From Obrimoposthia wandeli (lineage: Eukaryota), in assembly GCA_977020255.1 (NCBI GenBank), contig CDROCS010003256.1:62001-126000 (forward strand): a stretch of 64,000 nucleotides of DNA, in the 5' to 3' direction. Shown here one piece after another: positions 10,600-39,560 of the stretch. The notes beneath the pieces are model-generated. The model had not been told where the DNA came from. It made no database searches and worked only from the letters and a program-made list of their open reading frames with translations. A program made the translations under genes and the position numbers. Numbering within the stretch: the first letter of the stretch is position 1; each line of letters begins with the position of its first letter.

Positions 10600-12135
10600 A
10601 AATCTACCTAATGTTCTAAGCCAGCCGGATTCATATTTTTTACCAACAAAATATGGTAATTCTCCACCTTGTTGGCTTTGACTAAAAGCTTCAATTATTG
10701 CCGTTTCACTATCAACTTCTTAAAGGGCATAGCAAATTTATTTTTTATACTTGTTCTCTATTTGTTTATAAACAGTTAATCCCTTAGAATTAAACGTGTC
10801 TGTTAAAACACGTAAATCATCTGGCCAAGCTTGAGTAAAGTCAATAAATATATACCCATGTGCTTGTTTAGCAGCATCATAGAATGAATCAACTAAAAAG
10901 TTCTTATTTTGGGGAAATGCCTGTCTGGCTACGAAATCTACAACTGTTTGATCTCTAGGATTTTTAAATAAAACTAAGTAATGCACATTAAGATTTTTTG
11001 TTCTATGATAATCACTTTGATGAAAAAGATTTTTAGTGATAAATATAACTGTTACTTCACGATGTATTGGACTCTTTGTAAATCAATTATTAAAGTCTGA
11101 TTCCTTGTTAGCCAATTATTATTACATCTTCTTTTTTCAATCTTTCGCACTAATACGCATCAAATACTTCAATAAGTTTAATTTCCTTCAACTTGCAAAC
11201 TTCTGTTTGGGGTAATCCACTTTCCCCTCCTCCACCAAGATGCCAATAAATATTTTTGAAACTAATCGTTTTGTAACCATTTACATACGAAATGTGTCTT
11301 TCCACTTCCACTGGGATCAACTATTTGAAATACAGCATTATTATTTAACTCCATTACGTATACTTTTTCATATTAATATTGTTTATATTCTCATAAAAGT
11401 TTCCTTATTGAAATGTGTAATGTCAGAGGTATTGTAGATGAAATACAAAAATTATTTAATGAATATTTGGCTATAATTTTATTTATTTGTGTTCGATTTC
11501 TAAATTCTCGAATAACATGTGATCTAACCAATATTTCAATGTTATCTCTTGTTATATCATTATTTTTTAATTCTGATAAAATTTGTTTACCCTTAATTTT
11601 TCCAGAAAATATTTCGTCGACAAGACGATCCACTTCATTGTCAGTATTTATAGTAATATTCATTTGAAACAATAAGTTTAAACGGGTTTGTTTATAGAAA
11701 AAATATAATAAGATATTTTTCTAAAATCAAATCAACTATGTCTGGATAATCAAAATTTTTTAATCCCAATATCATAACTTTACCACTAAAAAAATATATT
11801 TACACATAGCGATTTAAACTTCAAATATTTGAGAGCAGGAAAATTTTCCGGTTCAAACATGCATTCTTTTTTCATTTTCTCTTTAATTTTATAAAGATTT
11901 ATTGCTTTCCGAGATTAGCTGAAATTGTGATTGGTTGTATTGCGCTGATTCGAATTCCAAATGGTTAATTGAACTCATCCAAAGGTATTTTGCATTCCAT
12001 AACACGATAACTTTTTAAAAGAATTCAATATGAAAATAAAATAAAAATCTAACCAGAGAGAAAAATAACAACGGTGAAATGGTCAAACTTGTTCACATAT
12101 TGTCTCGGCTTCGATTTGTTGGGGTTTCTATATGA
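10600..12135 (-). mobile_element. Maverick relic D: core-protein start, ATPase pseudogene (~10738-11350), 93-aa ORF (11391-11672), TBP-like pseudogene (~11700-12135)
   Basis: High by-eye nucleotide similarity and identical gene order to 17580-19700 and 24270-25710; ORF 10738-10986 is nearly identical to the ATPase C-terminus. Confidence 0.92.
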
Positions 12136-12324
12136 AACCTTTCAGATTTAGATCCTCTGATGGAGGGCCCTAACGTGAGTTCTATATAAGCAGGACTTGT
12201 AGTTGTTTGTGGCCTACTTAAGTTATGCTTGCCTATCTCAATTTCTATCTGAAGGTTTATTATGTCTAGGTGTTGCGAAATGTGTGAAGAGCTGTGTATA
12301 CGGTTACTGCAAAATTCCCTTAGT

Positions 12325-18916: not shown

Positions 18917-18953
18917 TACATATACTCTTTCATTTTTAATATTGTTTATATTA

Positions 18954-19235: not shown

Positions 19236-19254
19236 TAAGTTTAAACGGGTTTGT

Positions 19255-19755
19255 TTATAGAAAAGATAACAAGATGTAATAAGATTTATTTTCTAAAATC
19301 AAATCAACAATGTCTGGATAATCAAAATTTTTCAATCCCAATATCATAACTTTACCACTGGAAAATATATTTACACATAGCGGTTTAAACTTCAAATAAC
19401 TGAGAGCAGGAAAAATTTTTGGTTCAAACATGCATTCTTCTTTCAATTTCTCTGCAGTTTTAAAAAAAATTATCTGTTTCCCAAGAATAGCCGAAATCGT
19501 GATTGATTGTATTGCAGTGATTCGAATTCCAAATGGTAAATTGAACCCAAGCATTGGTATTTTGCATCCCATAACACGACAATTTCCTAAAAGAATTCAA
19601 TATGAAAATAAAATAAAAAACTAACCTGTAGGAAAAATAACAACTGTGAATTTGTCAAACTTTTCCACATATTGTCTCGGCTTCCATTCATTGAATGGTA
19701 AGTACGAAACATCATCTTCTGTTCTACCTTTATAATTTATATTTACGAGTTTCAT
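19255..19755 (-). CDS. Spliced TATA-binding-protein homologue, 153 aa (exons 19755-19626 and 19586-19255; 39-nt intron)
   Basis: Spliced product has both TBP repeats: MKLVNINY..KPRQY..VVIFPTGNCRVMGCK and IQSITISA..FEPKIFPALSY..VNIFSSGKVMILGLK, compared with TBP YEPELFPGLIY..LIFVSGKIVITGAK. Confidence 0.88.
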
Positions 19756-20004
19756 TAGACTAAAATTGTATTCTATAAAATCTTCTTTATATATTTCTGA
19801 ACCTGCTTTTCTATTGCACGTTTCTTGTAATTATCTTGCAAACCTATTATAATTGGATGATATATTTCTTCCAATCAAATTTGATTTTTAATATGGATTT
19901 AGTCCAATCAAATTCAATGCTTTAGTTATATTAACCAATGAGATTCATGTCTTTGTTAAAAATTATAATAAAAGAATGCGCCATTGGAGGATAAATTACA
20001 GTAA

Positions 20005-20486: not shown

Positions 20487-20654
20487 CTATTTCATTTTCT
20501 TTCATTTTGCATGTTATAAATTGTAATCGGTTTTATTCATTTTTACTATGTTTCTTTCATTTGGCAATTAATAATCAGTTTTATTTTTCATAATATTTGT
20601 ATCTTAAATGTATTTTTTGATAAATATGTTTTTAATCAGTTTCCCTATTTTAGA

Positions 20655-21065: not shown

Positions 21066-21540
21066 TAAATGTTTTGAAAATAATTTTGACTCGTATTTTG
21101 TTTTTCTCTTCTAAATTATATAGATCTATTTTTTCTCTTATAAATCTGACCTAGATATTTAACAAAATCAAGTAGTAATTTATTAATCTTTCTTAAAAAT
21201 AGTAGTCATATATTCACATATTATTTGAAATCTCGTCTGTGATAAGCTGCCGGGACCAATATGGATTCCTGTGGTCTTCTCTAATTACTTTAACATGTTT
21301 TTTATGTTTGATTTAATAAATGTTTTGAAAATAATTTTGAGTCGTATTTTTTTCTTTTCCTTTAAATCTGACCTAAACGTATTTTTTCCTATAAATTATA
21401 TAATTCTTACCTACTTTTTTCTCTCATAAATTATTAATCTAAAATCTTTCTTAAAAATAGTATTAATATATTCACATAAACATATTATTTAAAATCTTGT
21501 CTGCGATAGGCCGCCGGGGTCAAAATTGATTATCGTGGTG
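21060..21540 (+). repeat. ~250-bp imperfect tandem duplication downstream of SSB paralogue 2
   Basis: tttaataaatgttttgaaaataattttga begins at ~21060 and ~21311; both units end with similar gata(a/g)gc(t/c)gccggg motifs. Confidence 0.75.
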
Positions 21541-22540
21541 ATAAAACATAAATAACCAGGAAACGTATCCTGACATAATAATTATCATTTTAGATAAGTA
21601 TTGAAAAGAATAATAAAGCCTTGCAGAAAATGTAATAAGTTAAAAAAGAAGGTTCGAGATGTATACAAATAGCGAGACAATTACTATATAAAAGTACCAA
21701 ACAAAACGAAGTTTTGAAACAAATAATTAAACAAAGTGTTGACAAATGAGTTGACAATTGATGAGTTAAAATTGAAATTATTTCAGAATTTTGATTACAC
21801 AGACTATTTGATTCGACAAATACAGGACTGAAAATCGGTTATGACTTCACTTCGAAGATAAATAATGATACTTGGTAACATGATCAACTCTTACACGACC
21901 ATATACCCTGCTATGGATGATAATTTTATACTTGTTAATGAACATAACTCTGACAGAGACATCAGTGAACAAAATCCTGGTTAAAAATTTAATCAGTCAT
22001 AGTTGACTTTTATAAATCATCATATTAATAATTCTCATTTTTAGCATGACCGATTTAATCATTTGATTTTTATTTAATCTTTTCTTTTAAACAAATATTA
22101 AATGTACTATAAACAAACAGATGGATATCAATAAACTGGATATGACTCCAGATCAGAGGGAACTCACTCGGTCAGATCAAATCACAACATCAGTTAAAAT
22201 AAATAGAGAACATCGTAAAATATACCTGAAAGAACAGCATTGGCAAGATTTCTATATTGAAGAATGCGCCAATTTAGTATAGCATTTTTCAAAAATGGTA
22301 GTGGACGAAAAATATTTATAAATCAGACGTTTATCCCAAAAAAAATTGAAAATCACAAAAGAAGAGCGAACCAGCGTATTAATTATGAATAATAACAATA
22401 AGCCAACTCAAATCGCCTTAGGTGAAATTTTCAAAAATAATGATTGTGAAAAAATGGAGATTCATGTAGCGTTAGGAAAAGTCCATTTGAACACTAAATC
22501 AGATAAAACATTGAACTTTCAAATGATAAAAAATCACACA

Positions 22541-22650
22541 AGAAGTGGATGTGTCCGGTCTAATCCACACCCCCTCCCCCCCTTGTCCTTTAAAACTGTG
22601 TAGGTGTGTGGAGTGAAATTTCGTGTAGGTGTGTGGAGTGAAATTTCGTG
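22541..22650 (+). repeat. TIR of copy B (terminal bases degenerate)
   Basis: gtggatgtgtccggtctaatccacaccccctcccccc..tgtcctttaaaac..gtgtgtggagtgaaattt is the reverse complement of the 38345-38452 end. Confidence 0.9.
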
Positions 22651-22956
22651 TATGTGTGTCTCCATTCCACCCAAAGGGGGGAAGGAAGGGGTACCCCCCA
22701 TATTTGTTAAACTTTTACCATGAATCTCAAAAGTGGTTAGAGAAGACCACGAGAATCCATATTGACCCCGACGGCTTTTCGCAGACGAGATTTCAAATAT
22801 TACTACTATTTTTAAGAAAGATTTTAGATTAATAAATTACTACATGTTAAATATCTATGTCAGTTTTAGAATTTAGAGGAGAAAAATCGGTCAGATCTAT
22901 ATAATTTAGAGGAGCAAAAACAAAATACGAGACAAAATTATTTTTCAAAATATTTA

Positions 22957-23361
22957 TTAAACATAAAACAACATATTGGCTTCACTCAAAGTCCAGAGAG
23001 GCTGCATTTTCCCGTCATCAGCAAAATATCCATTCAGACGTATTGAGATATTTCATAGTTCTTCATCTAGAATTGGAGCAATCAAATATCCTAGATCATC
23101 TTTAAAATCCAGACTGGGATCAGTTTCAAGCTCGAAACAATTTCCTTCATATACATAATCAGGAATGTAAAATCCCAAAATATTTTTCAGTTGATCAAAA
23201 TCAGTTGTTGTTAAAATTTCGATGAGATATTTATTCTCCACTTTTGATATTTTCACAGGATTTATAATTCGTATAATTTGATGCCTCTTTAATATATTAC
23301 ATAGTTTTCCTTTTGAAATTCTTTCTGGATAATAAAAATTTGCTACACATCTCTTATCCAT
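22957..23361 (-). pseudogene. Putative SSB paralogue 2, copy B (TGG>TGA stop at ~23053)
   Basis: Aligns along its length with the intact ORF 20655-21065. Confidence 0.8.
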
Positions 23362-23494
23362 TCTAAAATAAGGAAACTGATTAAAAACAATGTTTATAAA
23401 AAATACACATAAGATACAAATAAGATACAAATAAAACTGATTATTAAATGAAAGAAACATAGTAAAACCGATTACAATTTATTACACACAATAG

Positions 23495-23971
23495 TTAAAA
23501 CATAGAAATATGAGCACGTTCAATTTTCCACATAGGCAACTTTGTTCCCATTTCATCTTTCTTGTAACCATAAAGTCGAATTGTTACAGTCCATTGCTTC
23601 TTTTTCGGAAACGCATCAATATCAACATATCTTCCATAGTCATCTAGAAATGCTTCATCGGCTCCTCGGATATAAAATTCGTTCTTATTGAAAGTAAAAT
23701 TCGGAACTGCCTTTTCTATTTTCTGTTTAAGATATTGAAAATCAAGTTTTTGAATACCTGATAGATAGTAGCTGAACTTTCTTCTTTCAATTGTCACAGG
23801 ATTTACTAAAGCAATCAGTTGAGCCTTCTTCAAGAATCTGACTTTGTATTTGAAATATTGTTTCACTTCTTCATACATATCCTTATCCGATTCTTCAAAC
23901 ATTTCTTCGTCATCGCTTAATACCCGTTGGATATCATCCATTGTTGATAATTGTCTTTGATATGAATGCAT
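23495..23971 (-). CDS. Putative OB-fold SSB, paralogue 1 (158 aa)
   Basis: Intact ORF with acidic N-terminus and C-terminal WTVTIRLYGYKKDEMGTKLPMWKIERA; function inferred. Confidence 0.6.
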   Translation of the reverse strand: MHSYQRQLSTMDDIQRVLSDDEEMFEESDKDMYEEVKQYFKYKVRFLKKAQLIALVNPVTIERRKFSYYLSGIQKLDFQYLKQKIEKAVPNFTFNKNEFYIRGADEAFLDDYGRYVDIDAFPKKKQWTVTIRLYGYKKDEMGTKLPMWKIERAHISMF

Positions 23972-23984
23972 TTACTGTGATTTG

Positions 23985-24220
23985 TCCTCCAATGGCGCAA
24001 TCTTTTATACTAATTTCTAACAAAGACATGAATCTCATTGGTTAATATAACTAAAGCATTGGATTTGATTGGACTAAATCTATATTAAAAATCAAAATTG
24101 ATTGGAAGAAATATATCATCCAATTATAATAGGTTTGCAAGATAATTACAAGAAACGTGCAATAAAAAAGCAGGTTCAGACATATATAAAGAAGATTTTA
24201 CAGAATACAATTTCAGTCTA
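23985..24220. promoter_or_regulatory. Divergent promoter between SSB1 and TBP with six CCAAT boxes and a TATA-like element
   Basis: CCAAT/ATTGG at 23989, 24037, 24058, 24068, 24101 and 24120; tatataaa at ~24183; region conserved in copies A and C. Confidence 0.6.
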
Positions 24221-24759
24221 ATGAAATTCGTAAATATAAATTATAAAGGTAGAACAGAAGATGATGTTTCGTACTTACCATTCAATGAATGGAAGCCGAG
24301 ACAATATGTAGAAAAGTTTGACAATTTCACAGTTGTTATTTTTCCTACAGGTTAGTTTTTTATTTTATTTTTATATTGAATTCTTTAGGAAATTGTCGTG
24401 TTATGGGATGCAAAATACCAATGCTTGGGTTCAATTTACCATTTGGAATTCAAATCACTGCAATACAATCAATCACGATTTCGGCTAATCTCGGGAAACA
24501 GATAAATCTTTTTAAAACTGCAGAGAAAATGAAAGAAGAATGCATGTTTGAACCAGAAATTTTTCCTGTTCTCAGTTATTTGAAGTTTAAACCGCTATGT
24601 GTAAATATATTTTCCAGTGGTAAAGTTATGATATTGGGATTGAAAAATTTTGATTATCCAGACATAGTTGATTTGATTTTAGAAAATATATCTTATTACA
24701 TCTTGTTATCTTTTTTCTATAAACAAACCCCGTTTAAACTTATTGTTTCAAATGAATAA
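24221..24759 (+). CDS. Spliced TATA-binding-protein homologue, 166 aa (exons 24221-24350 and 24389-24759; 38-nt intron)
   Basis: GT-AG intron restores a two-repeat TBP; FEPEIFPVLSYLKFKPLCVNIFSSGKVMILGLK matches TBP repeat 2. The C-terminus is 13 aa longer than copy A because of 2 extra T in a T-run. Confidence 0.88.
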
Positions 24760-25024
24760 TACTATAAATAGAGACAATGAAGTGGATCGGCTTGCCAATG
24801 AAATATTTTCTGAAAAAATTAGGGGTAAAGAAATTTTATCAGAATTAAAAAATAATGATATAACAAGAGATAACATTGAAATATTGGTTAGATCACACGT
24901 TATTCGAGAATTTAGAAATCGTACACAAATAAATAAAATTATAGCCAAATATTCATTAATTAATTTTTGTATTTTATCTACAATAGCTCTAACATTGTAC
25001 ATTTCAATAAGGAAACTTCTATGA
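24743..25024 (+). CDS. Conserved 93-aa Maverick protein of unknown function
   Basis: Open in three copies. Confidence 0.75.
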   Translation: MFQMNNTINRDNEVDRLANEIFSEKIRGKEILSELKNNDITRDNIEILVRSHVIREFRNRTQINKIIAKYSLINFCILSTIALTLYISIRKLL

Positions 25025-25061
25025 TAATATAAACAATATTAAAAATGAAAGAGTATATGCA

Positions 25062-25709
25062 ATGGAGCTAAATAATAATGCTGTATTTCAAATAGTTGGC
25101 CCAAGTGGAAGTGGAAAGACACATTTCGTCTGTAAATTGTTGCAAAATGAATCTCTTTTCAAATCTAGTTTCAAAAATATTTATTGGCATCATGGTGGAG
25201 GAGGGGAAAGCGGGTTAACCAAAACAGAAGTTTGCAAGTTGAAGGGTATAAAATTTATTGAAGGATTTGATGCAAATTGGTGTGAAAGATTGAAAAAAGA
25301 AGATGTAATAATAATTGATGATTTGTATGAAGAGGCTAACAAGGAATCGGACTTTAATAATTTATTTACAAAGATTGCAAGACATCGTGAAGTTACAGTT
25401 ATATATATCACTCAAAATCTGTTTCACCAAGGAGGTCACCATAGAACAAGAAATCTTAATGTACATTACTTAGTTTTATTTAAAAATCCTAGAGATCAAA
25501 CAGTTGTTGATTTTGTGGCCAGACAGGCATTTCCTCAAAATAAAAACTTTCTAGTTGATTCATTCCACGATGCTGCTAAACAAGCACATGGGTATATATT
25601 TATTGACTTTGCACAAGCTTGCCCAGATGATTTACGTGTTTTAACAGACACGTTTAATTCTAAGGGATTAACTGTTTATAAACAAATAGAGAACAATTAT
25701 AAAAAATAA
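25062..25709 (+). CDS. FtsK/HerA (A32-like) genome-packaging ATPase, 215 aa
   Basis: GPSGSGKT Walker A, IIIDD Walker B, ARHR, ITQN, RNLNVHYLVLFKNPRD, HGYIFID. Confidence 0.96.
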   Translation: MELNNNAVFQIVGPSGSGKTHFVCKLLQNESLFKSSFKNIYWHHGGGGESGLTKTEVCKLKGIKFIEGFDANWCERLKKEDVIIIDDLYEEANKESDFNNLFTKIARHREVTVIYITQNLFHQGGHHRTRNLNVHYLVLFKNPRDQTVVDFVARQAFPQNKNFLVDSFHDAAKQAHGYIFIDFAQACPDDLRVLTDTFNSKGLTVYKQIENNYKK

Positions 25710-25888
25710 ATGCGCAATGCCTTTTACAAAGTTGATAGTAAAACGTAAAGTAAAATCTAAGAAATCAAAAAAAAGAATCATTAAGAAAAAAGAAGTGAAA
25801 AAATTAATCAAATCTGTAGTTAAAAATAAAAAAAAAATTAAATGGCTTCGAATATAAACAATATTTAAATTGAACCTTTTTTATTAAA

Positions 25889-26218
25889 ATGCAGAAAATA
25901 CAAAGAAGCATACCCTATTTTAAAGCTTTAGTCAAAACCTCTTCTAATAAGAGAATGATTATTCTCAAAGCATTTCCATCCTTTGTTGTAGATGATTTAT
26001 TGGAAGTTTTGTATAATATAGTTTTGGGTCGAGTAAAAGTTGGAAATCGGAAAAATATATTAAAGAAATATAGAAAAACTATTCTAGATATTGCTAATGT
26101 AAAAAGTAAAAAAAGGAAACGAAATATTATTCTTAAACAGAATGATGGTTTCATAGGGGCTGTTATTCCAGTTGTTGCTTCAATTATCAGTAGTATTATA
26201 GCTGCGACACGTGCATAA
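25889..26218 (+). CDS. Maverick small basic protein with C-terminal amphipathic QxxGF..P segment
   Basis: Lys-rich body and KQNDGFIGAVIPVVASIISSII tail, resembling the conserved Polinton ORF found between ATPase and integrase. Confidence 0.7.
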   Translation: MQKIQRSIPYFKALVKTSSNKRMIILKAFPSFVVDDLLEVLYNIVLGRVKVGNRKNILKKYRKTILDIANVKSKKRKRNIILKQNDGFIGAVIPVVASIISSIIAATRA

Positions 26219-26304
26219 ACAATTATTTATAAAATCAGTTAAAGATATGGGTGCTAACCCTTCTTTACCTAAATTTAAATTATCTTTCTATTCAAATTGT
26301 TGTA

Positions 26305-27318
26305 ATGGAGAAGAAATGGTTCTACCCAAAAGATCCAATTGGCTACACCGGAGTTTAAAAATTAGCAAAAAGAACAAAACAAAAATATATGAAAACGCAG
26401 AAATGGCTGAGCAACCAGTTGGCCTACAGTCTGAACAAGCCGATGAGAATAAGGTTTCCAACTAGAGCTTACAAAACCAGCGGTCCTAATAATTTATGGC
26501 AAATGGATTTGATGGAGATGATCCCATATTCTTCCATTAATAAGGGATATCGATATATTTTAACATGTATTGATGTATTTAGCAGATTTGCTCGTGCAAT
26601 TCCAGTTAAAGCAAAGTCTTCAATAGCTATGCTTGAAGCCATTAAAGAAATATTAAAAGAGGACATTCCACAAAATGTGCAAACTGATTTAGGAAAAGAA
26701 TTTTATAATAAGCAAGTTCAATCATTATTTAAACAAAATAATATAAATCATTACTCTGTGTTTTCACAATACAAAGCAGCAGTAGTAGAAAGATTTAATC
26801 GTACTCTAAGAGATCGAATAAAAAAGTATTTCACAAAAGAAGGAAATAAAAAATGGATCCAAGTTTTACCTAAAATAATACATGCATATAATCACTCTGA
26901 ACATAGAGGTCTCAAGAGAATGAGACCTGTTGATGTTACTAATAACCTTGGTTTAAACAGAAATACCTTTGAAACCCATACAATAAAAACCATAAAAGCT
27001 AAAAATAAGGCAAAACTTTTAAATGCTGTTAATCATTTATATATTTATACTAATTTAATAGAACCAACGCTTGTAGGAGGACAACGAGTTTCACTTTTGA
27101 GAACAATATGGATATCTAAAAATGAAACTAAATATGGGGACACTGTCGGTATGTGTATAGATCAACCAATGTATCTTCCAGTTTCTCTCTTTTCTATAAA
27201 CAATATTGAAGTAAATATGAGAGATGATTCCGGACAACTAATAGATTTCACGTACGGGGCCAAGACAAGTTTAACAATACATTTAAGAAAACAAAATGGC
27301 GAATCCAGCAATAATTGA
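26305..27318 (+). pseudogene. Retroviral-like (rve) integrase fused in frame to the penton C-terminus
   Basis: DDE triad intact (WQMDL, QTDLGKEF, VERFNRTL). In-frame start at 26305 is interrupted by TAA at codon 18. After MRPVDVT (~26940) the sequence switches to penton NLGLNRNTF..., matching the 17673-18060 region. Confidence 0.92.
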
Positions 27319-27650
27319 AGCTTATAGTCAAAGCCAACAAGGTGGATAATTACCATATTTTGTTGGTAAACAAAATGGATCTAGCTGGCTTAGAACATTA
27401 GGTAGATTTGTCTTTCCTCTTTTAAAGAGACTCGGGCGATTTATATCAAAATAATGAAAGGATTACCTTTCATCTAATGACAATAAACTAATACCAACTT
27501 TTAAGAAGCATGCGCTTGATGAACTTGATAATGTTTTACCTGAAGTTGCTAATTTGATTAGAAAACGTAAATCAAATAAAAGCCAAGGAGGTAGTGGATT
27601 TAAAAGTAAAAAGAAGCTAAAAATTAATATAAACAAACGTAAGAAAGTTG
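27296..27650 (+). pseudogene. Small basic core-type protein, copy B
   Basis: MANPAIIEAYSQSQQGG*LPYFVGKQNGSSWLRTLGRF; further stops at ~27450. Confidence 0.75.
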
Positions 27651-27669
27651 AAGGAACAATATTTGCAAA

Positions 27670-28896
27670 ATGAGTTGCGCCAAAACTGAATTATGTATTT
27701 TTGATAAACCGCTTCCACAAGTAGTTGTAGATAATGCTTCCTTTGAAGAAATATTCCTTGTTAACTCAGTTTCAGGAACCACTTTAACCGATTTAGAATT
27801 TAATATTAATGGTTCCAATAGCGAGTATTTAGATTTGAATGATACTTTGCTTTATGTTCAAATAAAAGTATTAAATCGGGATGGTACTAATTTAGATGAA
27901 AATGCTGATGTAACACCTGTAAATTATCTATTTAATTCTTTATTTAATGATGCCATTGTTACTCTTAATAATGTCAAAATTGAAGGTGGAAATTCTTCCT
28001 ATGCTCATAAAGCTTTGATTGAAAGTCTTTTGAATTATAGTACTGATACTCAAAATACTAATTTGGCAACCATTGGTTATGATAAAACTGATGCAACTCG
28101 CAAAGAATGGATTGCAGGTTCTAAAGCTTACGAAATGTGTGGGTCTTTGAGATTGAATTTCTTTGAACAACCGAAATATTTAATTCCCGGTGTTAATGTA
28201 CATCTTCGTTTGAAACGTAATAAATGGAATTTTTCTTTGATAAGCACGGACATTCTAAAACCTAGACTTGATATTTTGGATGCAAAATTGTATGTTCGAA
28301 GAGTTAAAACCGAGCAATCAGTTTTAATGGCACATAATATAGGAATGGAAAAAAACAATGCTTGTTATCCTATTAGAGAAACTAAACTTATATCTTATTC
28401 TTTAGGTACGGGTACACAAGCTTTTAATAAGGATCAAATTTTTGGTGATGTAAGATTACCGAAATTCATTTTAATTTCTTTTCAAAAAACTGCAAAGTTT
28501 CTAGGAAATTATACGACAGATGCAACTCAATTTGACAATCTTAATGTTGGTTCAGTGACACTTTCAAGAAATACTGATTATCGTGAAACATATAAAACAG
28601 ATTTCGAAGGTAACGCTTATGCTTTGGCTTATACCCAATCTATTATTCGAAATTTGGGTCAACTAGATAAAAATATAAACAATGGTATTTCTTTCACTGA
28701 CTTTAAAAACAGCTGCCCGTTCTTCACATTTGTTTTGGCACCAGACTTTGATATAAACCAATGCCAACTACCAAAGGATGGAAATTTACGACTAGAAATT
28801 AAGTTCAATGCAGCTTTAACAAATCCTACTATATTTATTTACGGAGTATTTGATTCGGAAATACAAATCAATAAAAACAGAACTGTCATATTATAG
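27670..28896 (+). CDS. Double jelly-roll major capsid protein, 408 aa
   Basis: MSCAKTELCIFDKPLPQ N-terminus, LEF..YLDLNDTLLYV, FFEQPKYLIPGV..LRL and LRLEIKF motifs of Polinton MCPs; frame intact. Confidence 0.95.
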   Translation: MSCAKTELCIFDKPLPQVVVDNASFEEIFLVNSVSGTTLTDLEFNINGSNSEYLDLNDTLLYVQIKVLNRDGTNLDENADVTPVNYLFNSLFNDAIVTLNNVKIEGGNSSYAHKALIESLLNYSTDTQNTNLATIGYDKTDATRKEWIAGSKAYEMCGSLRLNFFEQPKYLIPGVNVHLRLKRNKWNFSLISTDILKPRLDILDAKLYVRRVKTEQSVLMAHNIGMEKNNACYPIRETKLISYSLGTGTQAFNKDQIFGDVRLPKFILISFQKTAKFLGNYTTDATQFDNLNVGSVTLSRNTDYRETYKTDFEGNAYALAYTQSIIRNLGQLDKNINNGISFTDFKNSCPFFTFVLAPDFDINQCQLPKDGNLRLEIKFNAALTNPTIFIYGVFDSEIQINKNRTVIL

Positions 28897-28897
28897 A

Positions 28898-29278
28898 ATG
28901 GAGTAAGACATATTTTAAATTTATATTTATTAATTTTTATTTAGTTCAAAACAAGTAAAAGAATCAGCAGAGAAGGTCCTGGGTGATAAATTCAATGGAG
29001 TTTATCCTATTGATATGATTCCATTTTTTCAATCTGGAGGTTACATTATCAATACTCATACTTCGAATTTACCAGGAGAACATTGGATAGCTATTTATGT
29101 TAGAGAGTGGACAATACATGTATTTGATCCACTTGCAATGTATTATCCACACAAACTTGTTTCAACTATTCAAAAAGGACGAAGAAGAGTATTTTACAAC
29201 AAGATACAATATCAGGATCCTGCGACGAGAAACTGTGGACATTTATGTATTTTATGGTTATCGTTGCAAAACGATTAG
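28898..29278 (+). CDS. Adenain-like cysteine protease, 112 aa after splicing (exons 28898-28902 and 28945-29278; 42-nt intron)
   Basis: INT..PGEHW (His), FDP (Asp), QYQ, NCGHLC (Cys); ATG GA|gtaag...ttag|T gives MDSKQV.. in frame. Confidence 0.92.
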
Positions 29279-29510
29279 TGTGTTATAAAAATAAATATTT
29301 TAAATGTTTTATTTTGAATTATTTTTTAAATCTCTAAAAATATATAAGGGTAAAATAATAAAAGACATAAGGAGATATGTCAGCAAAGATCATAATAAAT
29401 AAGGTCCAAAAAAGTATTGAAATAACAAATAGTTAGAGTCTAGGTGCTCTAAAATTTTAAAAACTAAACTAAAAACTTTAACTTCTGAAGTGTCCATAAT
29501 GCGCTTGTCG

Positions 29511-32500
29511 TCAGCGATTTTGGTTGATCAGTTGATGGGCTCTTGAACTAGTTTGCTCAACGCTTTCAAGACACCCAGTATCATAAACTTTCCGGTAGGC
29601 CTCATGTGTAAGATTGTTTCTTCCCACACCCTTTGCTCTCATTGAACATGTATTATTAGATGCATGTAAACTGTAGCATTTAGGGCGTAGGAAAATACAA
29701 TCATCATACGAAACCTGTCCCTCGCTTTCATCCTTAAATTTCCCGATAATGTCCTTTAAACTCATAGAGTGTAGAGGATGGTTAGCGGGATATTTATGGG
29801 TATCTAGTAAGTTGTCCCTAAACATTGCTGGTAATAATTGATTATTTAAACTAACATTCCTACATTCTAAAAAGAAAGAGTCAGTGTCCCCAGCTGCGAT
29901 TTTGAATCTCACAATTAAATTCTTGTCGGTATTTCTCCAATTCTATGTATTGAAGCTCATACATTCTGAGTTTAGAAATGTCTAAAACCGTTTGACCTAT
30001 ATAACTCGGTCGATCGAGACAAATACTCTGTTTTCCTAATAACACTGCTACCAAGTCATCTGCAATTGTAAAACTACGCTTGAAGTTGTACTTGCTAGTA
30101 TATGTTATTAGTTTACGCTCATCATTGCTAAACCGTAGACAAATACGTTTCCGCAAGTCCTCTACAGTTTTTCCAAAGAGACTATTACTTTTTAACTTGT
30201 AAAAATCTCGATCGAATATGCTAGTGGCCTAATTACGTTTTCTTGAATTCTTCTCAATATAGTCTTTAAACACAAAGTTTTGACTGAAGCTTATAGCACG
30301 ATGAATTCGAGTAACTTTCGCTCCCAACTTTAAGTAGAATTGAAGAAGCCGCCAATGCACAACATAATTCAACTTGTCTTCATGGGTTAACAATAATTTC
30401 TTAACCTTTGAATTAGGTGGGCATTGACAAACAGGCACTACTGGAAGATTATCTAATTTATCATGAACATTGGAGGGGATTTTTATGTTAATCTCAACCA
30501 AATAGCCGACGTCTGATGAAACTGTATCAACAGTAGCCAAATCTGTCATCAACTTATTCAACTGATCCACATCATAAACCCACTTAAAGTTGGCATGAGG
30601 TAGAGGTTGAGTAAACGCCCACCCATACAAATTATTAATATCGATGTACAGAATCTCCGTGGATTGATTTTTGACAACATGATGTTTGTTGACAAAAGTC
30701 ATTCCACCGCGTATACCATAATCATACATTTGATACATTGCGGGATCTTGCAGTAACTCGATATTAATTTTAAGAGTTTTTATTGCTGTTGCCTATGAAA
30801 GACCAGGTAAACTAAAGAAATGCATGGGATCTAGCCCATCTTTTGCTAAATACTTTACACGAAAGGACTCAAAAACATCAGCTAAAAGATAAATGCTTAA
30901 CTTCATATAATAAAGCATATATTAGAGAAGATTTTGACAATTATTCACCCAAAATGTACGGGCCTCATTATAGTCTTGAAGACTTACACCCTCAAATTCA
31001 GTTATGGGTGGGATTTCAGTTGTATTTTCTAAATCTGCGAAAGTTTTCGCAAATTTATACGGAAAAATCCCCTTATCGTTAACCGAAGCTGGGAACACTG
31101 ACTGTGTAATTGGCCATGCATTTAAAGATGCCATTAAATTTTTTAAAGACCCGCTCAAAAACTGCAGAGAATCTATGAATCTTAAACTGTAGAATTCAGT
31201 ATATGCAGTTAAAGATAAATATTTCTCTGAAGTTTGAGGTATACATGAAATTTCCCAAGAGCTTAATGTACCCAACGCGTATTTAAGTATATGATGCAAA
31301 TCATATCCTTTGAGGTTATGAAACACGATGGGAATGCGTGCTTTTTAGGGAGACGACGGCCAAGGTTACAAAGATTGCACGCCGCTCCCAAGTATCGCCC
31401 CGTAACATGATTGTGATCTCTGACTAACTTAGACTGGGTTCCACACAAATAACATAATCTACAAGAATTAAAATTAACCCAGTCTATGCCTGTCATGATC
31501 ATTGCTTGATGAGCATTGAGATCATACCACGGTTTGACAATTGTTGTTCCTAATTCCTCTAATTTTAACATAAAATCTAAAATACAATTTGGACCGGAAA
31601 ATTTATGATACTGGGTAATATTGGGGCCTAAGAATAGTAGTCCTGCCGAAGCCGGTAGGTGAATACTCTCATACTGGTCGTGCAATGCTAAAATTGACTC
31701 AAAATCTGCATACACCCTGAATTCCACGGGTATGCATTTTGCCCAATCCCTGAATTTTAAATCCTTATCCTTAGGCATGCTATATAGCGTATTGTCATCA
31801 GGATTCAGTGAACATAATGTCAGATGTTTGCTGTAAGAGAGCTCGGATCGGAACCCATGCAAACATCTATGACACCACTTACACCTTATCCTAACCGGTA
31901 AGGCTCCATTATCTAAATTTAGAAGACGATCTAAACTGGGAATTGCAGCATAATGGAATTTATTATTATGTTCGAGCAAAATTAAGTTGACCTGAGTCCC
32001 CTCATTTTTGCTCCTATAAATTACATCTACAAAAGGATTTTTAAAAATTTCTTCATCTGTTACATCAACTGGGATATCAGTATTATATTTGAATACATTA
32101 ATACTCAAGTTATTAAGATGTTCAAATCTTGATATCGCAGTTAATTTAACAGGAAAATCTATTCCATGATACTGCAATTCATTTAAAAAAGGGGTATATT
32201 TACTGACATGCTCTCTATGCTCAGTAATTACATCCCTTTTGAGGATGGCCAACACGCTATACAGAAAGCAAAGGTTATCACTGTTTTGTACGTTAACAAT
32301 GGAACGTGAAAGTTGAAGAGATCTAGGTGAAGGAATGTATGAACTCCCCGAAAGATATATCATGTCAGTGAACTTTGTTAGAACAAAGCTAACATCGTGA
32401 ATTCTAACTAGAGTCCATCCACTACTTAACTCGCTATAATTAGCAATTTTTTCATCCAGGTTTCTTCCAATTTCAGTTACAAAATTATCATACAAAACAG

Positions 32501-32822
32501 TTGCTTTATGTGAAATTACCCTAGTTTTAGTTTCCTCATTGACATTTTTAAACTGCACTGTTGCGCAAAATTGAACCTTAGCCTGTCCTAATTTAGTCAC
32601 TTCTGATTTTAAAAGATTTTCAATATTTGAATCTACACCTACGTTTAATAAAATTTCATTTCTTAATGGCACCTTAACTATAACATATTTATTATTTAGG
32701 TGATACTCTATTGTAGCACCGTTTTCTCTACGTTTTTTGGGTGGGACCTTATTAAGAAATTGGCCTCGCCTCTTTCTTCCGTTTGTCGCTGACAAACCTC
32801 CCCTAATTGAACGGGAAGACAA
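29511..32822 (-). pseudogene. polB: Protein-primed family B DNA polymerase with N-terminal terminal-protein region; frameshifted
   Basis: Exo I VYADFES, DHNHVTGRYLGAACNLCN insert, Exo II FHNLKGYD, motif A YIDINNLYG, motif B KLKSNSLFGK, motif C GDTDS. Split over ORFs 31263-32822, 30922-31326, 30229-30738, 29881-30156 and 29511-29912. No ATG at the 5' end. Confidence 0.96.
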
Positions 32823-32829
32823 CTATTTA

Positions 32830-33902
32830 TATTAATAGTTGAGACAATCGCAGCTGAGGTTGAAGGTGCTGCTATTGGTGATGCTGCCGATGTTGAGACA
32901 ATTGCAGCAAAGCTGCTGCTAGTTGATGCTGCCGATGTTGAGGCAACTGTAGATGATGTTGAAGGGACCGCTGACCTTTCCGATGAAGAAGCGGCTGTTG
33001 TAGAAGTTAGTGCTGCTGAAATAAATATATTAAAAAATAAATATATTTTTAAAAATTATTACCTCTAAGGCGTGCTAACATCGATGTAGGCACTCGCGAA
33101 GGTGGAGGCATATCTGTTGTAGCAGATGACGATTGTAGAACGGTATTTCCTGAATAAATAATATAAATAAAATATATATAATAAAAATAAAATATATAAT
33201 TACTATTTACAAAAAAAAAAAAAAAAACTAATGATGACAATCCAAGTTGAGCTGGAATGAAGTCATCTTCATTGGTGGAAACCAGCCAGCTGTCGGCCGG
33301 TGGCTCGACGAAATCGGATTTCTCGATGGTCTCCAACCAGGTGTTGTCGCTCCATTGAGGCTGCTCCATCTCGAAATCTGACTGGGTGATATTTCGCATC
33401 CAGTCATTGTTTGAGAATTGGGTTGCTGGTGCCAACTCCTCAAAATCTTCCTCGGAGATGTCGTTCATCCACTCATTGTTAGACATTTGAGTGGATGGGG
33501 CAGCAGCAGAATCAGGAGCCGGGAGAGAAGGACCAATGGCAGGACCATAAACTGGTAGACTGACTGCCACTGTAAATGGAGGTGGAGCTCGAGCGGCCTG
33601 CGAATCGCGCACCAATTGGACGATATCCCTCTTCTTGTTGTTGGCCGTGAAACACGATAGGTGAGCTCGATGTTCACAGAAGAATTCTCGAAACTCCTTC
33701 TCCTCCATTGTTCTGCAGAAGGGGCAGACGAAGAACAGAACACCTTGAGACTTTGTCCGGTAGTATGCAGACATTGTCTCCATGCAGGACTCTCCTCCAT
33801 GCAGAGCCGAAGCAGCGCAATACGCAGGGAATAGGTTACACGTAATCTGAAATAATAAATATTAATAAGGAAATAATAAAAATAAATTCTTACCATAGGC
33901 AT
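32830..33902 (-). CDS. Spliced Cys/His-rich (RING-like) protein with acidic W..I...DF repeats and a Ser/Thr/Ala linker
   Basis: Exon 33902-33894 (MPM), 47-nt intron, then ITCNLFPAYC..H..C..CPFC-x12-CEHRAHLSC; further AT-rich introns near 33150-33230 and 33020-33062. Confidence 0.7.
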
Positions 33903-33984
33903 TATTTCAAATTGTCGGGGATTTAAATGAAGAAAGTGTTTGCTTATATACTAAAATTTATGCACACATGCTCTTTTCCTATTG

Positions 33985-34240
33985 GATTAAAAAATTGAAT
34001 TTATTCCTCCACTGAGAAGGATTGTTTATCTGTTATTGGATGAAAAAATAATTTTATTCCTCCAATTAAAGAGAAGGATTGTTTATCTATTATAGGTTGA
34101 AAAAATAATTGTATTTTTCTCATTAAAGAGAAGGATTAATCATATATTATAGGTTGAAAAAAAATTTATTCCTCTAATCAAAAGGCTTATTTGTAAATAA
34201 ATGTAAAATTTTAATAATGAATTCCTCCAATTAGAAGAAT
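33985..34240. repeat. ~57-bp tandem repeats upstream of the Zn-finger/PolB unit
   Basis: tttattcctc..gagaaggattgtttatct..atagg/attgg..aaaaaat repeated 4-5 times. Confidence 0.75.
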
Positions 34241-34275
34241 TGTTTATCTACATGTCAAGTAATAATAAGAAAGAC

Positions 34276-34719
34276 TTAAACATTTTTATATGCGCAATGG
34301 TCACCATGATTACGATATGGACAGCAAATATTTTGTGGAATATTTAATAGATGATCACGTGAAATATTTAAAGTATTCAACCTCAATTTAGGAAAATATT
34401 TTTTTAAAGTCTTATATTTTTTGCCATCCATGTCATCTAAAACATAAAAAATTTCATTTTCAATTTCAAAATTAGATTTAAAAGTATCGAAAATACATAT
34501 TTCACAAAAAGCCTTATGTTTTAATAAATGGAAATATTTAGTTAGATATAAATTAGTAAATGTTTTCTTATAATCTAAACTTTTAAATTGGATATCTATA
34601 TGAAATATGAAATGCAAAGGATGAAAAACGTCGCATACATCCATAATACATAATTCTTTTATAATATAATCCCCATTTTTGTTAATGAAAGCCTCAAAAT
34701 CTATGATATATTCCTGCAT
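34276..34719 (-). CDS. DEDD 3'-5' exonuclease-like accessory protein with C-terminal CxxxxHxxHCA motif
   Basis: IIDFEAF..YIIKELCI N-terminus and CCPYRNHGDHCAYKNV tail; may be C-terminally truncated. Confidence 0.6.
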   Translation of the reverse strand: MQEYIIDFEAFINKNGDYIIKELCIMDVCDVFHPLHFIFHIDIQFKSLDYKKTFTNLYLTKYFHLLKHKAFCEICIFDTFKSNFEIENEIFYVLDDMDGKKYKTLKKYFPKLRLNTLNISRDHLLNIPQNICCPYRNHGDHCAYKNV

Positions 34720-34853
34720 AATTACCCAAATTTGTAGCAAATCCCGTTGTTTATAACGAAAAACAATTAATCAAAAATTTATTAAAATGACGAGGTAGTA
34801 TTTAGACAATTTATTTAGACAATAAACATAATCAATAAAGACAAAATAATAAT

Positions 34854-35183
34854 CTATAAAATTAATTTTTTTGTGGAAGGACCCTCTTCCGGTTTAATCT
34901 GGAGGATTCGCTTTCTTGCTGCTCGCCGAACATCCTCCGTCTCTTCTCTTCTTTTTTCCTCCACCTTCCTTTTTTCCATTTCGATTTTCTTGTTCCACTC
35001 CACAACCCGACGTCGTTCTGCTAGCCGCCTGTCCTGAATCTCCACCCGACGATTCCACTCGGTCGCGACAGCAGTATATAAATTCTGGTTGAGGATCCTC
35101 TTTCGTAAATCTCCTTTCTTCTCATTTATTCTTATATTTGTCTCGATCTTCGTCACCAAACTTTGCATTTTAATAAATTCCAT
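34854..35183 (-). CDS. Highly charged coiled-coil protein, 109 aa
   Basis: Intact ORF with an NLS-like basic tail; homologue in copy A. Confidence 0.7.
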   Translation of the reverse strand: MEFIKMQSLVTKIETNIRINEKKGDLRKRILNQNLYTAVATEWNRRVEIQDRRLAERRRVVEWNKKIEMEKRKVEEKRREETEDVRRAARKRILQIKPEEGPSTKKLIL

Positions 35184-35587
35184 TTTTTAATTATGAAGAT
35201 GTTAATAAATTTGAACCTATATATATAAATTAAAGATATTTTTAATCCAATCACAAGCAATTAAAATATATTTATCAAATGGAAGTTTAATAAATATATA
35301 ACTAATCATTGCATTTATATTTAATCCTAAAAATTTAATTATTCCTTAACAATCCAATCACATTCGAATAAGTTAACTTTATTTTAATAAACTTACGGAG
35401 GATATTTTAATATTACTAAATTCTAAAATTTATTTTTAACCTTGTTATTTTATTAAACTTAAGGAGGATATTTTAATATTAAATTCTAAAATTTATTTTT
35501 AACCTTGTTATTTTAATAAACTTAAGTAGTATATTTTAATATTACTAAATTCTAAAATAAATAATAATAAAAAGACAACACAAGAAA

Positions 35588-37691
35588 CTAATGTTTATAA
35601 ATTATATTTTTGAAAATCCTTACGAAGTCTTCATTGGGATCATTTGGGTCGTATTCCCTCCGACTTATTTTGATAGGAGAAAGCGGTACTGGTTCCTTCT
35701 TCTTTGGCCGGCCTGGTTTCTTTTTCGGCTTCACCGGTTGCTGTACAGCAATTGTCCTTCCCTCAGGTTTTGGCAATAGTTGCCGCAACTTTTTGGGAGG
35801 AGGTGCAGCCGATGTTGATGGCCCCGACATAGAAGCAGTAGCCTTCCTCTTCCGCGGAGCTTTCTTCTGTTTCTCCTCCTTCTCACGCTGAAGCTGGCGT
35901 GAGACGGCATCCTGTTGCCCACGCGAATCTGGAAGCATTGCGGGTGTATCCAGTTCCGGAATTCGTCCAAACCAGCGTCATCCCAGGCCCTCTTCAAGTT
36001 TTGGCTGGTTGTTGGACGAGGAGAAGCAGTCTCCTGCAGGCGTTGTTGACTCGAGTGCGGACTTATCTCGATCGGCGAGACTGAGATCCTCTCATATAAG
36101 ATAGGCCCGTCGTCCATTGGAGGAGGGAGAATCTCCTGCTGGCCAATCACCGCCTCAGAATAATGGCCAATTGAGGTTCGAATTTTTCTCGCGCGCCTCG
36201 TCTTCTTCACCTCTGCCCGCTTTGTCCTTTTCTTAGGGAAAGGAGTAACTTCTCCCCAAGTCTCCTCAATTATCCGGACAGGTTCCTGCAAATGAAAACA
36301 AAAATAAAATTTCAAATAAAATTTTATTTAAATAAAAAAATATTTAAAATAACAAAAATTACCTCAATAATCTTAGACGGAAGGTTTTCCTGCCGCTCAA
36401 TCGTTACTTCACTCGAATTGAGCAGACAGGATTTCGCCTTTCTAAGACGCCGTGTCTTCCGTACAGTAAGCTGCCTCGTTCGCTTATGCGGGAAAGGAGA
36501 AATTTTGGCCCATGTCTCCTCAGTTAATATTATTGGTTCCTGCAACAAAAAAACATTAATAAAATTTAAACATATAAATAATTTACCTCGATGACGGGCA
36601 GATTAGCCTGTTTCACCAACTTGGCCTTCTTCCGATGGACCGTATTGGTTTTGATTCGATGACGTCGAGGTTTCCTAACTGCCGCTTGCTTCCTATCGAT
36701 AGGTAGTCTCCGAGATGCCTCCTCCTAAATTTCCTCCACCAACTCAGCTTCCTAAGTGAATAATTAAATAAATTTACTAATTTATAATGATATACCTCAA
36801 TTTTAGCCGGAGTCGGTAGGTATCTCTGATCACTCCTGGGATCATCCTGGCTACATTGACTCGCCAAGTATTGCGGTTCAATTAGCCTCTCAATCGTGGT
36901 CACTGACGGTGCCAAATCCAGTTGCAGTTTCTGAAAATAAAATTAAAAAACATTTTAAATAAATGATTTCTAACCTCATTCGTCGCCTTTATTCTCCTAA
37001 CAGGACGTATCGGAGATTGTGGCCTTCTGAATGGATCAGGCACTGTAATGTTGGGTATTGGAGTCGGAGTTGTAGAGGGAGTGAGACCATCCCATTCGTC
37101 AGTGAACAGATCCCACTCATCTTCATCCATTTCTGCAACCATGGACTCGTTGGCTCCTGGGGCTCCGATACTTGGCTGTATCCACTTCTCCTCCCCATCC
37201 GACGGAACGTCATCAGTAAACAGCTCCTCGTCTGAGTCTGGTGCCAGTATTATCTCCGGTTGAGACAGCGGGATCAATTTCCAGGGGCATTTGATTGCCG
37301 CCTCGAAATTGTCAAAGAGATTGGATCTCCTTGCTGCTACTGCTGAAGTTGCCGGACGATTGGCTTCTGTGTTCAGCCTGGGAGTACAGTCTTCCCAATT
37401 CTCTATCGAATCCTGACTAGTCAGATCTATATATTGGGATCTCTGTACCCCACCTCGCACGCTCATTGGTTCTTCTCTTGGAGTTGAGCTGGCCAATGGC
37501 GGTTCTTCTAGCAACAGTTGGGCTCTTGCTGCTGCTTCTCCTTCGTCTCCTTCAGTCACCACCGACGAGTCTTGACTAAGTAAGCCAATGTACTGCGCCG
37601 GTGGTGGCGTTCGCTGCTGTACTGGAGAGAGATCTCCATACAGTTGAACCTCCGTCTCTTCGTCTAGGTCAACGTTGTTGTAGATTGGCAT
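35588..37691 (-). pseudogene. Five-exon 'gene X' of copy B (exons 37691-36975, 36930-36796, 36751-36587, 36539-36363, 36285-35588; ~630 aa consensus)
   Basis: Four phase-0 GT-AG introns (44, 44, 47, 77 nt). TGG>TAG in exon 3 and a 4-nt deletion in exon 5 relative to copy A. Confidence 0.8.
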
Positions 37692-37759
37692 TCTTGCTTC
37701 TTGATTAATGATATTTGATTTATGAAAAAATAATGAAAAGAGGTTTCCTTATATACAAA

Positions 37760-38150
37760 AATAATAGACTAACCCTCTTTTGTCGTCCAATGAGAGCGGG
37801 TTAATCAAATAATTTTTTTGAAAATCAATAGGCTATTCTCAATTTTTTTTAACTATGCTGGAATGCTGGAATGTCATTGGATAAAACATATTTTATTCGA
37901 AAATATATCACTAAACTTTTGTCGTCCAATGAGGGCTGGTTATTCAAATAATTTATTTGAAAATCAGTAGGCTTTTCTCAATTTTTTAACTATGTTTGAA
38001 TGCTGGAATGTCATTGGATAAAACATTTTTTATTCGAAAATATAACTATTTTCTCAAGATTTTCTTAAAATTTTGTTGTATAAGTTTAACGTCCAATGAA
38101 AACGTATTATTCAAAGAATTTATGGTATTTTCTTAAATTTTGTTGATGTT
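37760..38150. repeat. Three ~125-bp subterminal promoter-like repeats containing CCAAT motifs
   Basis: gtccaatga..ttattcaaataattt..gaaaatc..gtcattggat repeated; only one such unit in copy A (~13480-13590). Confidence 0.75.
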
Positions 38151-38344
38151 TGAATACATGTATGTCTTTGGATTAGTATTTATTACTCGTTGATCCACCG
38201 CGGGCCCGTAGGGCACGCTTTGGCCAATTTTTTGGCCTCTCAGGACCTTAATCAAAAATTTGGGAGCATTATGAGATTTTTAAATTTACAGGGTGTTAAA
38301 TGGAGTTAATTTTTTTTTTTTTGAGTGTTTGGAATGGGGGGGTA

Positions 38345-38452
38345 GAAAATTTTTCTACACACCTACACGAAATTTCACTCCACACACATGCACGGTTTTA
38401 AAGGACAGTAGGGGGGAGGGGGTGTGGATTAGACCGGACACATCCACCTACT
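38345..38452 (-). repeat. TIR of copy B
   Basis: Ends ...ggattagaccggacacatccacctact at 38452. Confidence 0.93.
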
Positions 38453-39019: not shown

Positions 39020-39560
39020 CAATAGACTTATCTTGACAATGATAATCAAAATCTTTAAGCAAATACACTTAGAGCAGGGGTGCGCAACAGCGGCCCGCGG
39101 GTCACATGCGGCCCTCTATGCAAGTTAGTGCGGCCCTCGCTAACAAAATTTATTTTTTACCTTCCGCAGGATTTGAATCTGTTTCGCCACAGTAAGGTAA
39201 ATTTTACAGTTTTAAAATCTAAATTCCAAGTGTCTCATTAAAACGATTTGCCAAGATTTATTCCATAGGTAAAATAAATGTTTTTCTGAATGCAAATATA
39301 TTGTAAAATTTTTGAATTTATTATGCATATGAATTCTAGATTTTCAGTGTGGCCCACTTAATATCTGAAGTGATGTTATATGGCCCGCCGACTAAAAATG
39401 TTGCACGCCACTGACTTAGAGTATCTAACTTTAAAATTCTCAGTGCTGCAAACAATTCTGGTTCAAATATACAATTTCTTCCCATTTTCATAGATACCTT
39501 ACACAAATTAACCTTCTTGTTGATATTCACTAAGATACTTATATATTAATAATCTTTATT
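39020..39560 (-). pseudogene. Diverged TBP-like relic interrupted by a hAT MITE
   Basis: KVNLCKVSMKMGRNCIFEPELFAALRILKL (ORF 39336-39530); LKDFDY remnant on the other side of the MITE. Confidence 0.8.
39075..39413. mobile_element. hAT-superfamily MITE, 339 bp
   Basis: TIRs CAGGGGTGCGCAAC / GTTGCACGCCACTG; perfect 8-bp TSD acttagag (39067-39074 and 39414-39421). Confidence 0.93.

Follow-up and report, generated by a model that had tools for sequence, protein, structure and literature searches.

A minimal TATA-binding protein carried by Maverick/Polinton elements as a candidate viral late-promoter factor

The TATA-binding protein (TBP) kinks TATA DNA with four phenylalanines (F99, F116, F190 and F207 in yeast) and two asparagines (N69 and N159). 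Excerpts of the literature indicate that mutations at I194, V203 and L205 alter yeast TBP specificity and that the C-terminal half of the protein reads the upstream half of the box (PMC1636458), and that helix H2 crosslinks to TFIIA and NC2 (PMC2577341); a TATA variant carrying C(-25), that of 1QN3, is bound by host TBP via Hoogsteen pairs that avoid a leucine clash (PMC4402545, likewise in excerpt). Among viral proteins, KSHV ORF24 reads TATTWAA with a polar DNA face (10.1101/2025.08.25.672222), and the excerpted accounts describe a large protein in which all four phenylalanines are retained and the acidic TFIIB residues are absent, and which attaches directly to the Pol II CTD and acts together with five further viral factors (PMC7498053; 10.1101/2025.08.25.672222). 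Within Polintons themselves, TBP is named for a MELD virus with an adintovirus-like PolB in the Fig. 5 legend of PMC8502044 (2021, in excerpt), and is present in all three of the three members of Polinton cluster VC_101_0 along with a TFIIB-like gene (PMC7805220 Table S6). TBP is therefore already listed for Polintons, in the excerpted text without main-text discussion, and is less novel as a Maverick gene than originally assumed. TBP or TATA is mentioned neither in the main text of 10.64898/2026.06.19.733378 and PMC10748475 nor in the supplements of PMC8502044 and PMC10120064, and a literature search covering few subscription papers returned no title or abstract on a mini-TBP family, its structure or a YATAAACR box, and no description of the timing of Maverick capsid genes.

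The window analysed here is a 64,000-nt stretch of the Obrimoposthia wandeli genome (contig CDROCS010003256.1, positions 62,001 to 126,000). At 24221-24759 it holds a TBP-like gene (hereafter mini-TBP) with a 38-nt GT-AG gap inside a Maverick, and here the coordinates and a Pfam TBP match agree with what had been proposed. The surrounding element, copy B, displays Maverick/Polinton hallmarks in its protein-primed PolB (pPolB) and rve integrase (both broken), capsid, A32 ATPase and terminal inverted repeats (TIRs), with the protease scoring below cut-off:

22540..38452: Maverick/Polinton copy B, about 15.9 kb, bounded by TIRs
22545-22637 and 38354-38447: TIR arms of copy B, 93% over 94 nt
25062..25709, + strand: A32-like packaging ATPase (Pfam Pox_A32, 26.7 bits, cut-off 22.8)
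26359..27318, + strand: rve integrase (Pfam rve above cut-off), fused by a deletion to the end of the gene for the putative minor capsid
27670..28896, + strand: predicted double jelly-roll major capsid protein; structural matches to its model include the capsids of PBCV-1, iridovirus and mavirus (E 2e-16)
28934..29278, + strand: adenain-like protease (Pfam Peptidase_C5 weak, below cut-off; synteny in relatives)
29511..32822, - strand: protein-primed PolB (Pfam DNA_pol_B_2 above cut-off), with several broken frames in copy B

An ORF and Pfam scan of the 16-kb element revealed no RNA polymerase gene. In copy B, the single copy considered for this feature, the flanks do not match as a 6-bp target-site duplication and the left end is degenerate. 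Copy A (13217-21539) is a sister of copy B (22540-38452) with an internal deletion and the opposite orientation, and the two lie head to head with their TBP genes pointing apart. Adjoining the mini-TBP of copy B is a divergent member of a conserved ORF group at 23495-23971 (- strand), with relatives such as L073:1502-2138, and an ORF of this group stands next to mini-TBP in 18 metagenome loci; ORFs of this type are often preceded by a 40-45 nt GT-AG gap, and no family was found for it, the protein atlas giving no match at 0.9 or above. Elsewhere in the window, a ubiquitin-like ORF at 45506-45874 (+ strand, Pfam 43 bits) and a PH-like ORF at 41139-41561 (+ strand, trematode match below cut-off) are probably host sequence.

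The mini-TBP genes and relics of the window are the following:

24221..24350, + strand: exon 1 of copy B (shortened repeat 1), 43 codons from the ATG at 24221
24351..24388, + strand: GT-AG gap of 38 nt, a candidate phase-1 intron
24389..24759, + strand: exon 2 of copy B (end of repeat 1 and whole of repeat 2), TAA at 24757-24759
19255..19755, - strand: mini-TBP of copy A, with a 39-nt gap and an open frame, inside the internally deleted, inverted element copy
11659..12147, - strand: broken relic, by sequence match
61996..62411, - strand: broken relic, by sequence match
39030..39545, - strand: diverged relic, split by an insertion at 39075-39413

The summed exons yield 166 aa in copy B and 153 aa in copy A, which is the size range originally given, but the 166-aa tail is probably a slipped T-run, because 16 of 28 sister copies lack 2 nt relative to copy B across 24697-24724 and end like copy A (9 of 28 match B). 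Both copies had been described as intact, and their frames are indeed open, but copy A carries Lys in place of a 98%-conserved stirrup Glu. Relics had been placed at ~11700, ~39020 and ~62000: those at 11.7-12.1 kb and 62.0-62.4 kb are present, with the GT donor kept and the AG acceptor lost, and the third is real but lies mostly at 39417-39542 (- strand), where 45% amino acid identity over 42 residues marks it as far more diverged than the others. The 339-bp insertion that splits it (39075-39413), which we take to be hAT-like, has short inverted ends and an 8-bp target duplication. A weak trace (E 0.006) at 58825-58902 (+ strand) comprises a mini-TBP intron end and exon-2 start and resembles the family of L057.

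The exon-2 frame matches Pfam TBP (PF00352) at 44.3 bits (cut-off 22.9) with a single repeat detected, and its 35 matches among solved structures are all TBP (best E 4e-13); exon 1 by itself has no Pfam match and resembles the N-terminus of an intronless natural relative (43%, E 8e-11). The fold was assessed on a model of such a relative of the window's spliced protein, P0003 (pLDDT 96), whose best structural matches are all TBPs. This model superposes on yeast TBP with Z 13.2 and rmsd 2.6 Å over 151 residues, residues 1-153 aligning to yeast 66-240, such that the TBP fold first proposed is recovered by structural search with a relative's predicted model.

Residues were mapped through P0258, whose numbering differs from that of yeast by a constant 50, with the repeat-1 register resting on a profile alignment. 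Across 110 relatives the equivalents of F190 and F207 (100%), F116, E186 and E188 (98% each) and N69 (97%) are kept, as is that of P191 in the mini-TBP alignment. Near-invariant changes occupy both the repeat-1 side (V71>N, 99%; V122>R, 98%; T124>M, 99%) and the positions N159>S (97%), I194>R (98%), V203>C (100%) and L205>N (100%); the window's family differs from the others at a single site, 24 of 25 copies having Ser at the I194-equivalent and not the 98%-conserved Arg. The original prediction was correct that one kinking Asn is kept and the other is Ser, and that three of the kinking phenylalanines remain, but the fourth is not Tyr: the F99 position is Pro26 (96% conserved in the profile alignment), and Tyr29 (16% conserved) falls at V102. 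A shortened repeat 1 and a missing N-terminal extension were likewise rightly called, as repeat 1 is ~10 residues shorter before F116 than in cellular TBP and a median of 3 residues precedes the first strand motif. The linker between strands 45-51 and 66-78 spans 20 residues versus 33 in canonical TBP and contains no long helix in the P0003 model, indicating that H2 is probably missing. Three canonical features are thus not found, namely the four intercalating phenylalanines, the N69/N159 pair and H2, and the acidic stirrup E-P-E is kept at 97-98% in the 110 relatives. Based on the relative's model and the alignments, we predict that E-P-E forms a TFIIB-type acidic stirrup and that the DNA face is polar and remodelled.

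The genes of copy B are preceded by two kinds of promoter-like sequence, the first three entries below belonging to the TBP gene itself:

24183-24190, + strand: TATATAAA, putative host-type TATA of the TBP gene, with the same layout in relatives
24213-24217, + strand: TCAGT, putative initiator-like site of the TBP gene
24100-24124, + strand: CCAAT-type sites before the TBP gene, by sequence
24718..24725, + strand: TATAAACA box, 34 nt before a 90-aa ORF and overlapping the TBP gene end
25028..25035, + strand: TATAAACA box, 34 nt before the packaging ATPase
25677..25684, + strand: TATAAACA box, 40 nt before a 46-aa basic ORF
25853..25860, + strand: TATAAACA box, 36 nt before a conserved 109-aa ORF
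26214..26221, + strand: CATAAACA box, 33 nt before a 72-aa ORF starting MG
27628..27635, + strand: TATAAACA box, 42 nt before the major capsid gene
34748..34755, - strand: TATAAACA box, 36 nt before a conserved 147-aa ORF
23391..23398, - strand: TATAAACA box, 37 nt before a 102-aa ORF

Eight of the 13 YATAAACR sites in copy B stand 33-42 nt before an ORF, and none lies within the PolB gene. Across TBP-bearing elements, the box occurs upstream of 55/74 virion-module genes (eight classes, de-duplicated upstream regions), as against ~1.6 in sum and at most 3 per class for shuffles and 0/74 for the antisense strand. It precedes the ATPase in 12/14 cases, the 109-aa ORF in 8/11, the capsid in 8/9, the putative minor capsid in 6/9, the small ORF before the capsid in 5/6, the integrase in 5/7, the 147-aa ORF in 8/13 and the protease in 3/5, with 21 of 48 sites placed 31-37 nt before the ATG. 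Before TBP genes it was found in 0/38; these have a canonical TATA in 21/38 (shuffle mean 7.5) and an initiator-like site in 17/38 (shuffle mean 7.7, maximum 15). The TBP genes of L091, L094, L099, L101 and L105 have no TATA box; their upstream regions instead have a short TTTGTTTT motif in common. The TATA-like site at 24183, at first put forward for a DNA-binding assay, is more plausibly the gene's own host-type promoter than the target of mini-TBP.

The box also precedes the ATPase in 4/5 further TBP-bearing loci, and in 0/13 contigs without a detected TBP, which are partial and mostly distant. The corresponding Fisher p of 6e-6 overstates the contrast because the control contigs are partial or distant, TBP absence from them is unproven and kinship confounds the comparison; no close TBP-less Maverick was found, TBP being present in 10/10 genome regions fetched. 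The pattern has exceptions, as the TBP-bearing L113 and L231 are without the box before the ATPase and the box is matched in 3/4 genes of class c943, which has TATA-like promoters, and the window's family uses the same box despite its Ser at the I194-equivalent.

Since the capsid and packaging genes stand behind a shared TATAAAC box, mini-TBP likely switches those genes on. We therefore propose, with a probability of roughly 60%, that mini-TBP is the element's viral late-promoter factor, predicted to bind YATAAACR and recruit host TFIIB and Pol II, with "late" read purely from gene function. The notion that the element redirects host Pol II to its own promoters gains a candidate target in this box. 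Under the proposed mechanism, host TBP would transcribe the mini-TBP gene early from its TATA and initiator promoter, and the host would splice the 38-nt intron of the transcript. The repeat-2 half of the saddle, with F190, P191 and F207 kept, would then read the upstream TATA half, and the repeat-1 half, remodelled by F99>P, V71>N, V122>R and T124>M, would accept C at position 7, which we take to be the C(-25) of the TATA variant; this C, fitted by host TBP presumably only with distortion, would lie under the repeat-1 half, and mini-TBP would prefer TATAAACA over TATAAAAG. Seated on YATAAACR before capsid, packaging and integrase genes, mini-TBP would recruit host TFIIB via the kept stirrup together with Pol II and, without H2, would bypass TFIIA and NC2 control, the combined steps yielding an early-to-late switch. 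That a whole branch of Mavericks/Polintons might follow such a two-stage transcription programme, in which one 150-residue, H2-less, TATAAAC-reading TBP fires the virion genes by way of host TFIIB and Pol II, we regard as an even bet.

Alternatively, the reader of the box could come from the host, be it TBP itself, one of its paralogues or a Forkhead-type protein, with mini-TBP boosting TATA-dependent transcription generally or having another target. This is the strongest of the competing explanations, though an unlikely one. TATAAAC is one position off canonical TATA, a TBP complex with the C(-25) variant has been solved, host TBP can accommodate TATAAAC in a crystal, ATAAACA presumably also fits a Forkhead-type site, and the host has several TBP-family genes, one of them very divergent (L031-L037). 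However, the box is one-stranded and set at a fixed distance, unlike a typical enhancer site, it is missing before the ATPases of all 13 contigs without a detected TBP, and the near-invariant non-canonical residues of the DNA face would be needless for a generic booster. The stirrup kept at 98%, together with the loss of one of four kinking phenylalanines and one of two asparagines, which may weaken DNA binding, could instead befit a decoy that damps host transcription by titrating away the host's TFIIB or other partners of TBP; we consider this improbable, as H2, a site contacted by TFIIA and NC2, is deleted, the concave face shows conservation and no drift, and the box would be left unexplained. 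The more specific suggestion that TFIIA or NC2 is sequestered is unlikely because H2, which crosslinks to both, is missing. Slightly less probable again is a repressor or architectural factor acting on TATA-like DNA, whose role would be to shut off early promoters or to bend the DNA as it is packaged or integrated. Mini-TBP differs from herpesvirus ORF24, as excerpted from PMC7498053, in having neither an activation domain nor one that binds Pol II, and no TFIIB-like partner was found in the elements: no match arose in the 45 + 15 neighbour proteins scanned beside mini-TBPs (part of the ORFs), and a genome search gave 12 matches among 29 candidates, with no multi-copy family. On the other hand, the stirrup would permit TFIIB recruitment, and the boxes lie ahead of virion genes at a distance typical of promoters, and are found neither at the TIRs nor upstream of the TBP gene.

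A late-promoter factor encoded at this locus would be made from a spliced transcript, and comparison among relatives argues strongly for the splicing originally predicted. Natural proteins encoded without the intron (P0003, and L044:1306-1737 of the same genome) align without a break over the junction; L073:2175-2621 is a further intronless member. Unrelated intron sequences occupy the same phase-1 site in three Maverick families of the genome, with a fourth family intronless. The gap is bounded by GT..AG in 23 of 25 copies aligned over it, with lengths of 35-40 (copies chosen by flanking DNA). Parsing of 60 loci gave 34 with a 35-45 nt intron, 9 intronless and 17 unparsed; the parser demanded splice ends, and therefore only position and length are informative among these loci. 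In four read runs the intron and spacers are evenly covered and DNA-like, and the 38-nt skip is not among the 15 joints listed of 457.

The mini-TBP family is under purifying selection, with dN/dS of 0.05-0.39 among those metagenome pairs that are not saturated (58 of 67) and of 0.21 and 0.28 between genome families, where the other 4 of 6 pairs are saturated. Among young copies, pN/pS for shared changes is 0.12 and 0.41 (exons 1 and 2, small counts), and for private changes 1.10 in exon 1 and 0.58 in exon 2 (ATPase, 0.64); because these private changes are near neutral, most young copies appear to be decaying, a drift that is expected after insertion. Thirty copies were left out of this analysis because they had been chosen for protein identity. 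The expectation that dN/dS would lie clear of 1 thus holds between families and among metagenome pairs, but not for the private changes of young copies. It is very improbable that the window's mini-TBP family is an unspliced, dead passenger, a reading to which a gap shorter than the 47-nt intron of the host TBP gene, splicing deduced by sequence comparison and the decay of young copies lend something, but which would leave the 35-45 nt introns with GT..AG at one codon in three families, beside the intronless fourth, and the keeping of about half of residues at near-saturated synonymous divergence between families without explanation.

A search of the 1.35-Gb genome returned 150/150 scored matches at 98-100% identity, from 32,673 first-look candidates, and 200 kb sampled at fixed positions held 2 mini-TBP matches. 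Mini-TBP is carried by at least four Maverick families and, extrapolating from this sample, would number roughly ten thousand copies in the genome, with a very wide error. These genes probably outnumber the host's TBP genes by orders of magnitude, a very rough comparison, and leaky expression could therefore bear on host transcription. About 7% of the fixed-position sample (L291-L310) matches four Maverick families, and a capsid query gave 35,203 first-look candidates in the genome, which are not copy numbers.

Beyond this genome, mini-TBPs of 145-160 aa form a wide family in Mavericks. A profile search returned 509 proteins, the best being 145-160 aa with canonical TBPs among the weaker matches; a Maverick core gene is present in 26/58 metagenome loci and in 18 of the 24 reaching 3 kb, with L073, L077, L108 and L113 being near-complete elements. 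Searches of IMG/VR with the TBP, capsid and first ATPase profiles gave no relatives, and the protein atlas returned TBP clusters only for mini-TBP, with uninformative taxa. A quick tree of 61 rows places 32 mini-TBPs, along with 4 unlabelled rows, apart from the three host TBP rows (branch SH-aLRT 98), showing the separation from host TBPs that a phylogeny had been expected to address; recent capture from the host is ruled out by this split. The host itself has two canonical-type TBP genes head to head (L031/L032, G000 C238) and, on two contigs (L034/L035), a TBP-like gene that is divergent and lacks introns. In other Maverick families of the genome, BIR (inhibitor of apoptosis) and dual-specificity phosphatase genes adjoin mini-TBP, and metagenomic relatives carry further accessory proteins:

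L055:640-1452, L057:2257-3036 and L057:299-736: BIR and dual-specificity phosphatase neighbour genes
L077:225-719, L097:1710-2168, L096:1918-3327 and L113:6804-7889: ubiquitin-conjugating enzyme, RING, LRR and KilA-N proteins

A matched factor and box make the timing of Maverick capsid genes directly testable and offer a sequence marker of virion-stage transcription. Mini-TBP is, moreover, a natural experiment on TBP, in which the same three specificity positions are changed, H2 is dropped and the TFIIB surface is kept. If our reading is true, it would represent a natural altered-specificity TBP, present in thousands of copies in one genome and independent of herpesvirus vTBP, and, to our knowledge, the smallest viral late-transcription system.

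Among known systems, the NCLDVs encode TBP-like proteins that are structural matches in BFVD (best E 1.5e-8). These proteins are mostly longer, and their viruses often encode their own RNA polymerase. The elements of PMC8502044 and PMC7805220 combine, as far as the excerpts describe them, a TBP-like gene with pPolB, RVE, ATPase, capsid and protease, as here; VC_101_0 differs, by description and not by sequence, in its TFIIB-like gene, which was not found in the present elements. Cellular TBP (Pfam PF00352; yeast Spt15, archaeal TBP) has in common with mini-TBP the two-repeat saddle (Z 13.2, P0003 model) and the equivalents of F116, F190, P191, F207, N69, E186 and E188. In contrast, mini-TBP is 153-166 aa long, with no N-terminal tail, a shorter repeat 1, no H2, the F99>P and N159>S changes, and polar residues at V71, V122, I194 and L205. 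The vTBPs of beta- and gamma-herpesviruses (KSHV ORF24, EBV BcRF1) are, in the excerpted accounts, likewise viral TBP-like proteins with a polar face that work at a variant TATA before late genes with host Pol II, although mini-TBP's own tie to a variant box and to host Pol II is, by comparison, a predicted one. Relative to ORF24 as so described, mini-TBP amounts to a bare core in which the acidic stirrup is retained, and its box is YATAAACR and not TATTWAA. At most, then, mini-TBP works like a herpesvirus vTBP without being a member of that group, as it has neither the Pol II-binding N-terminal domain nor the six-factor complex.
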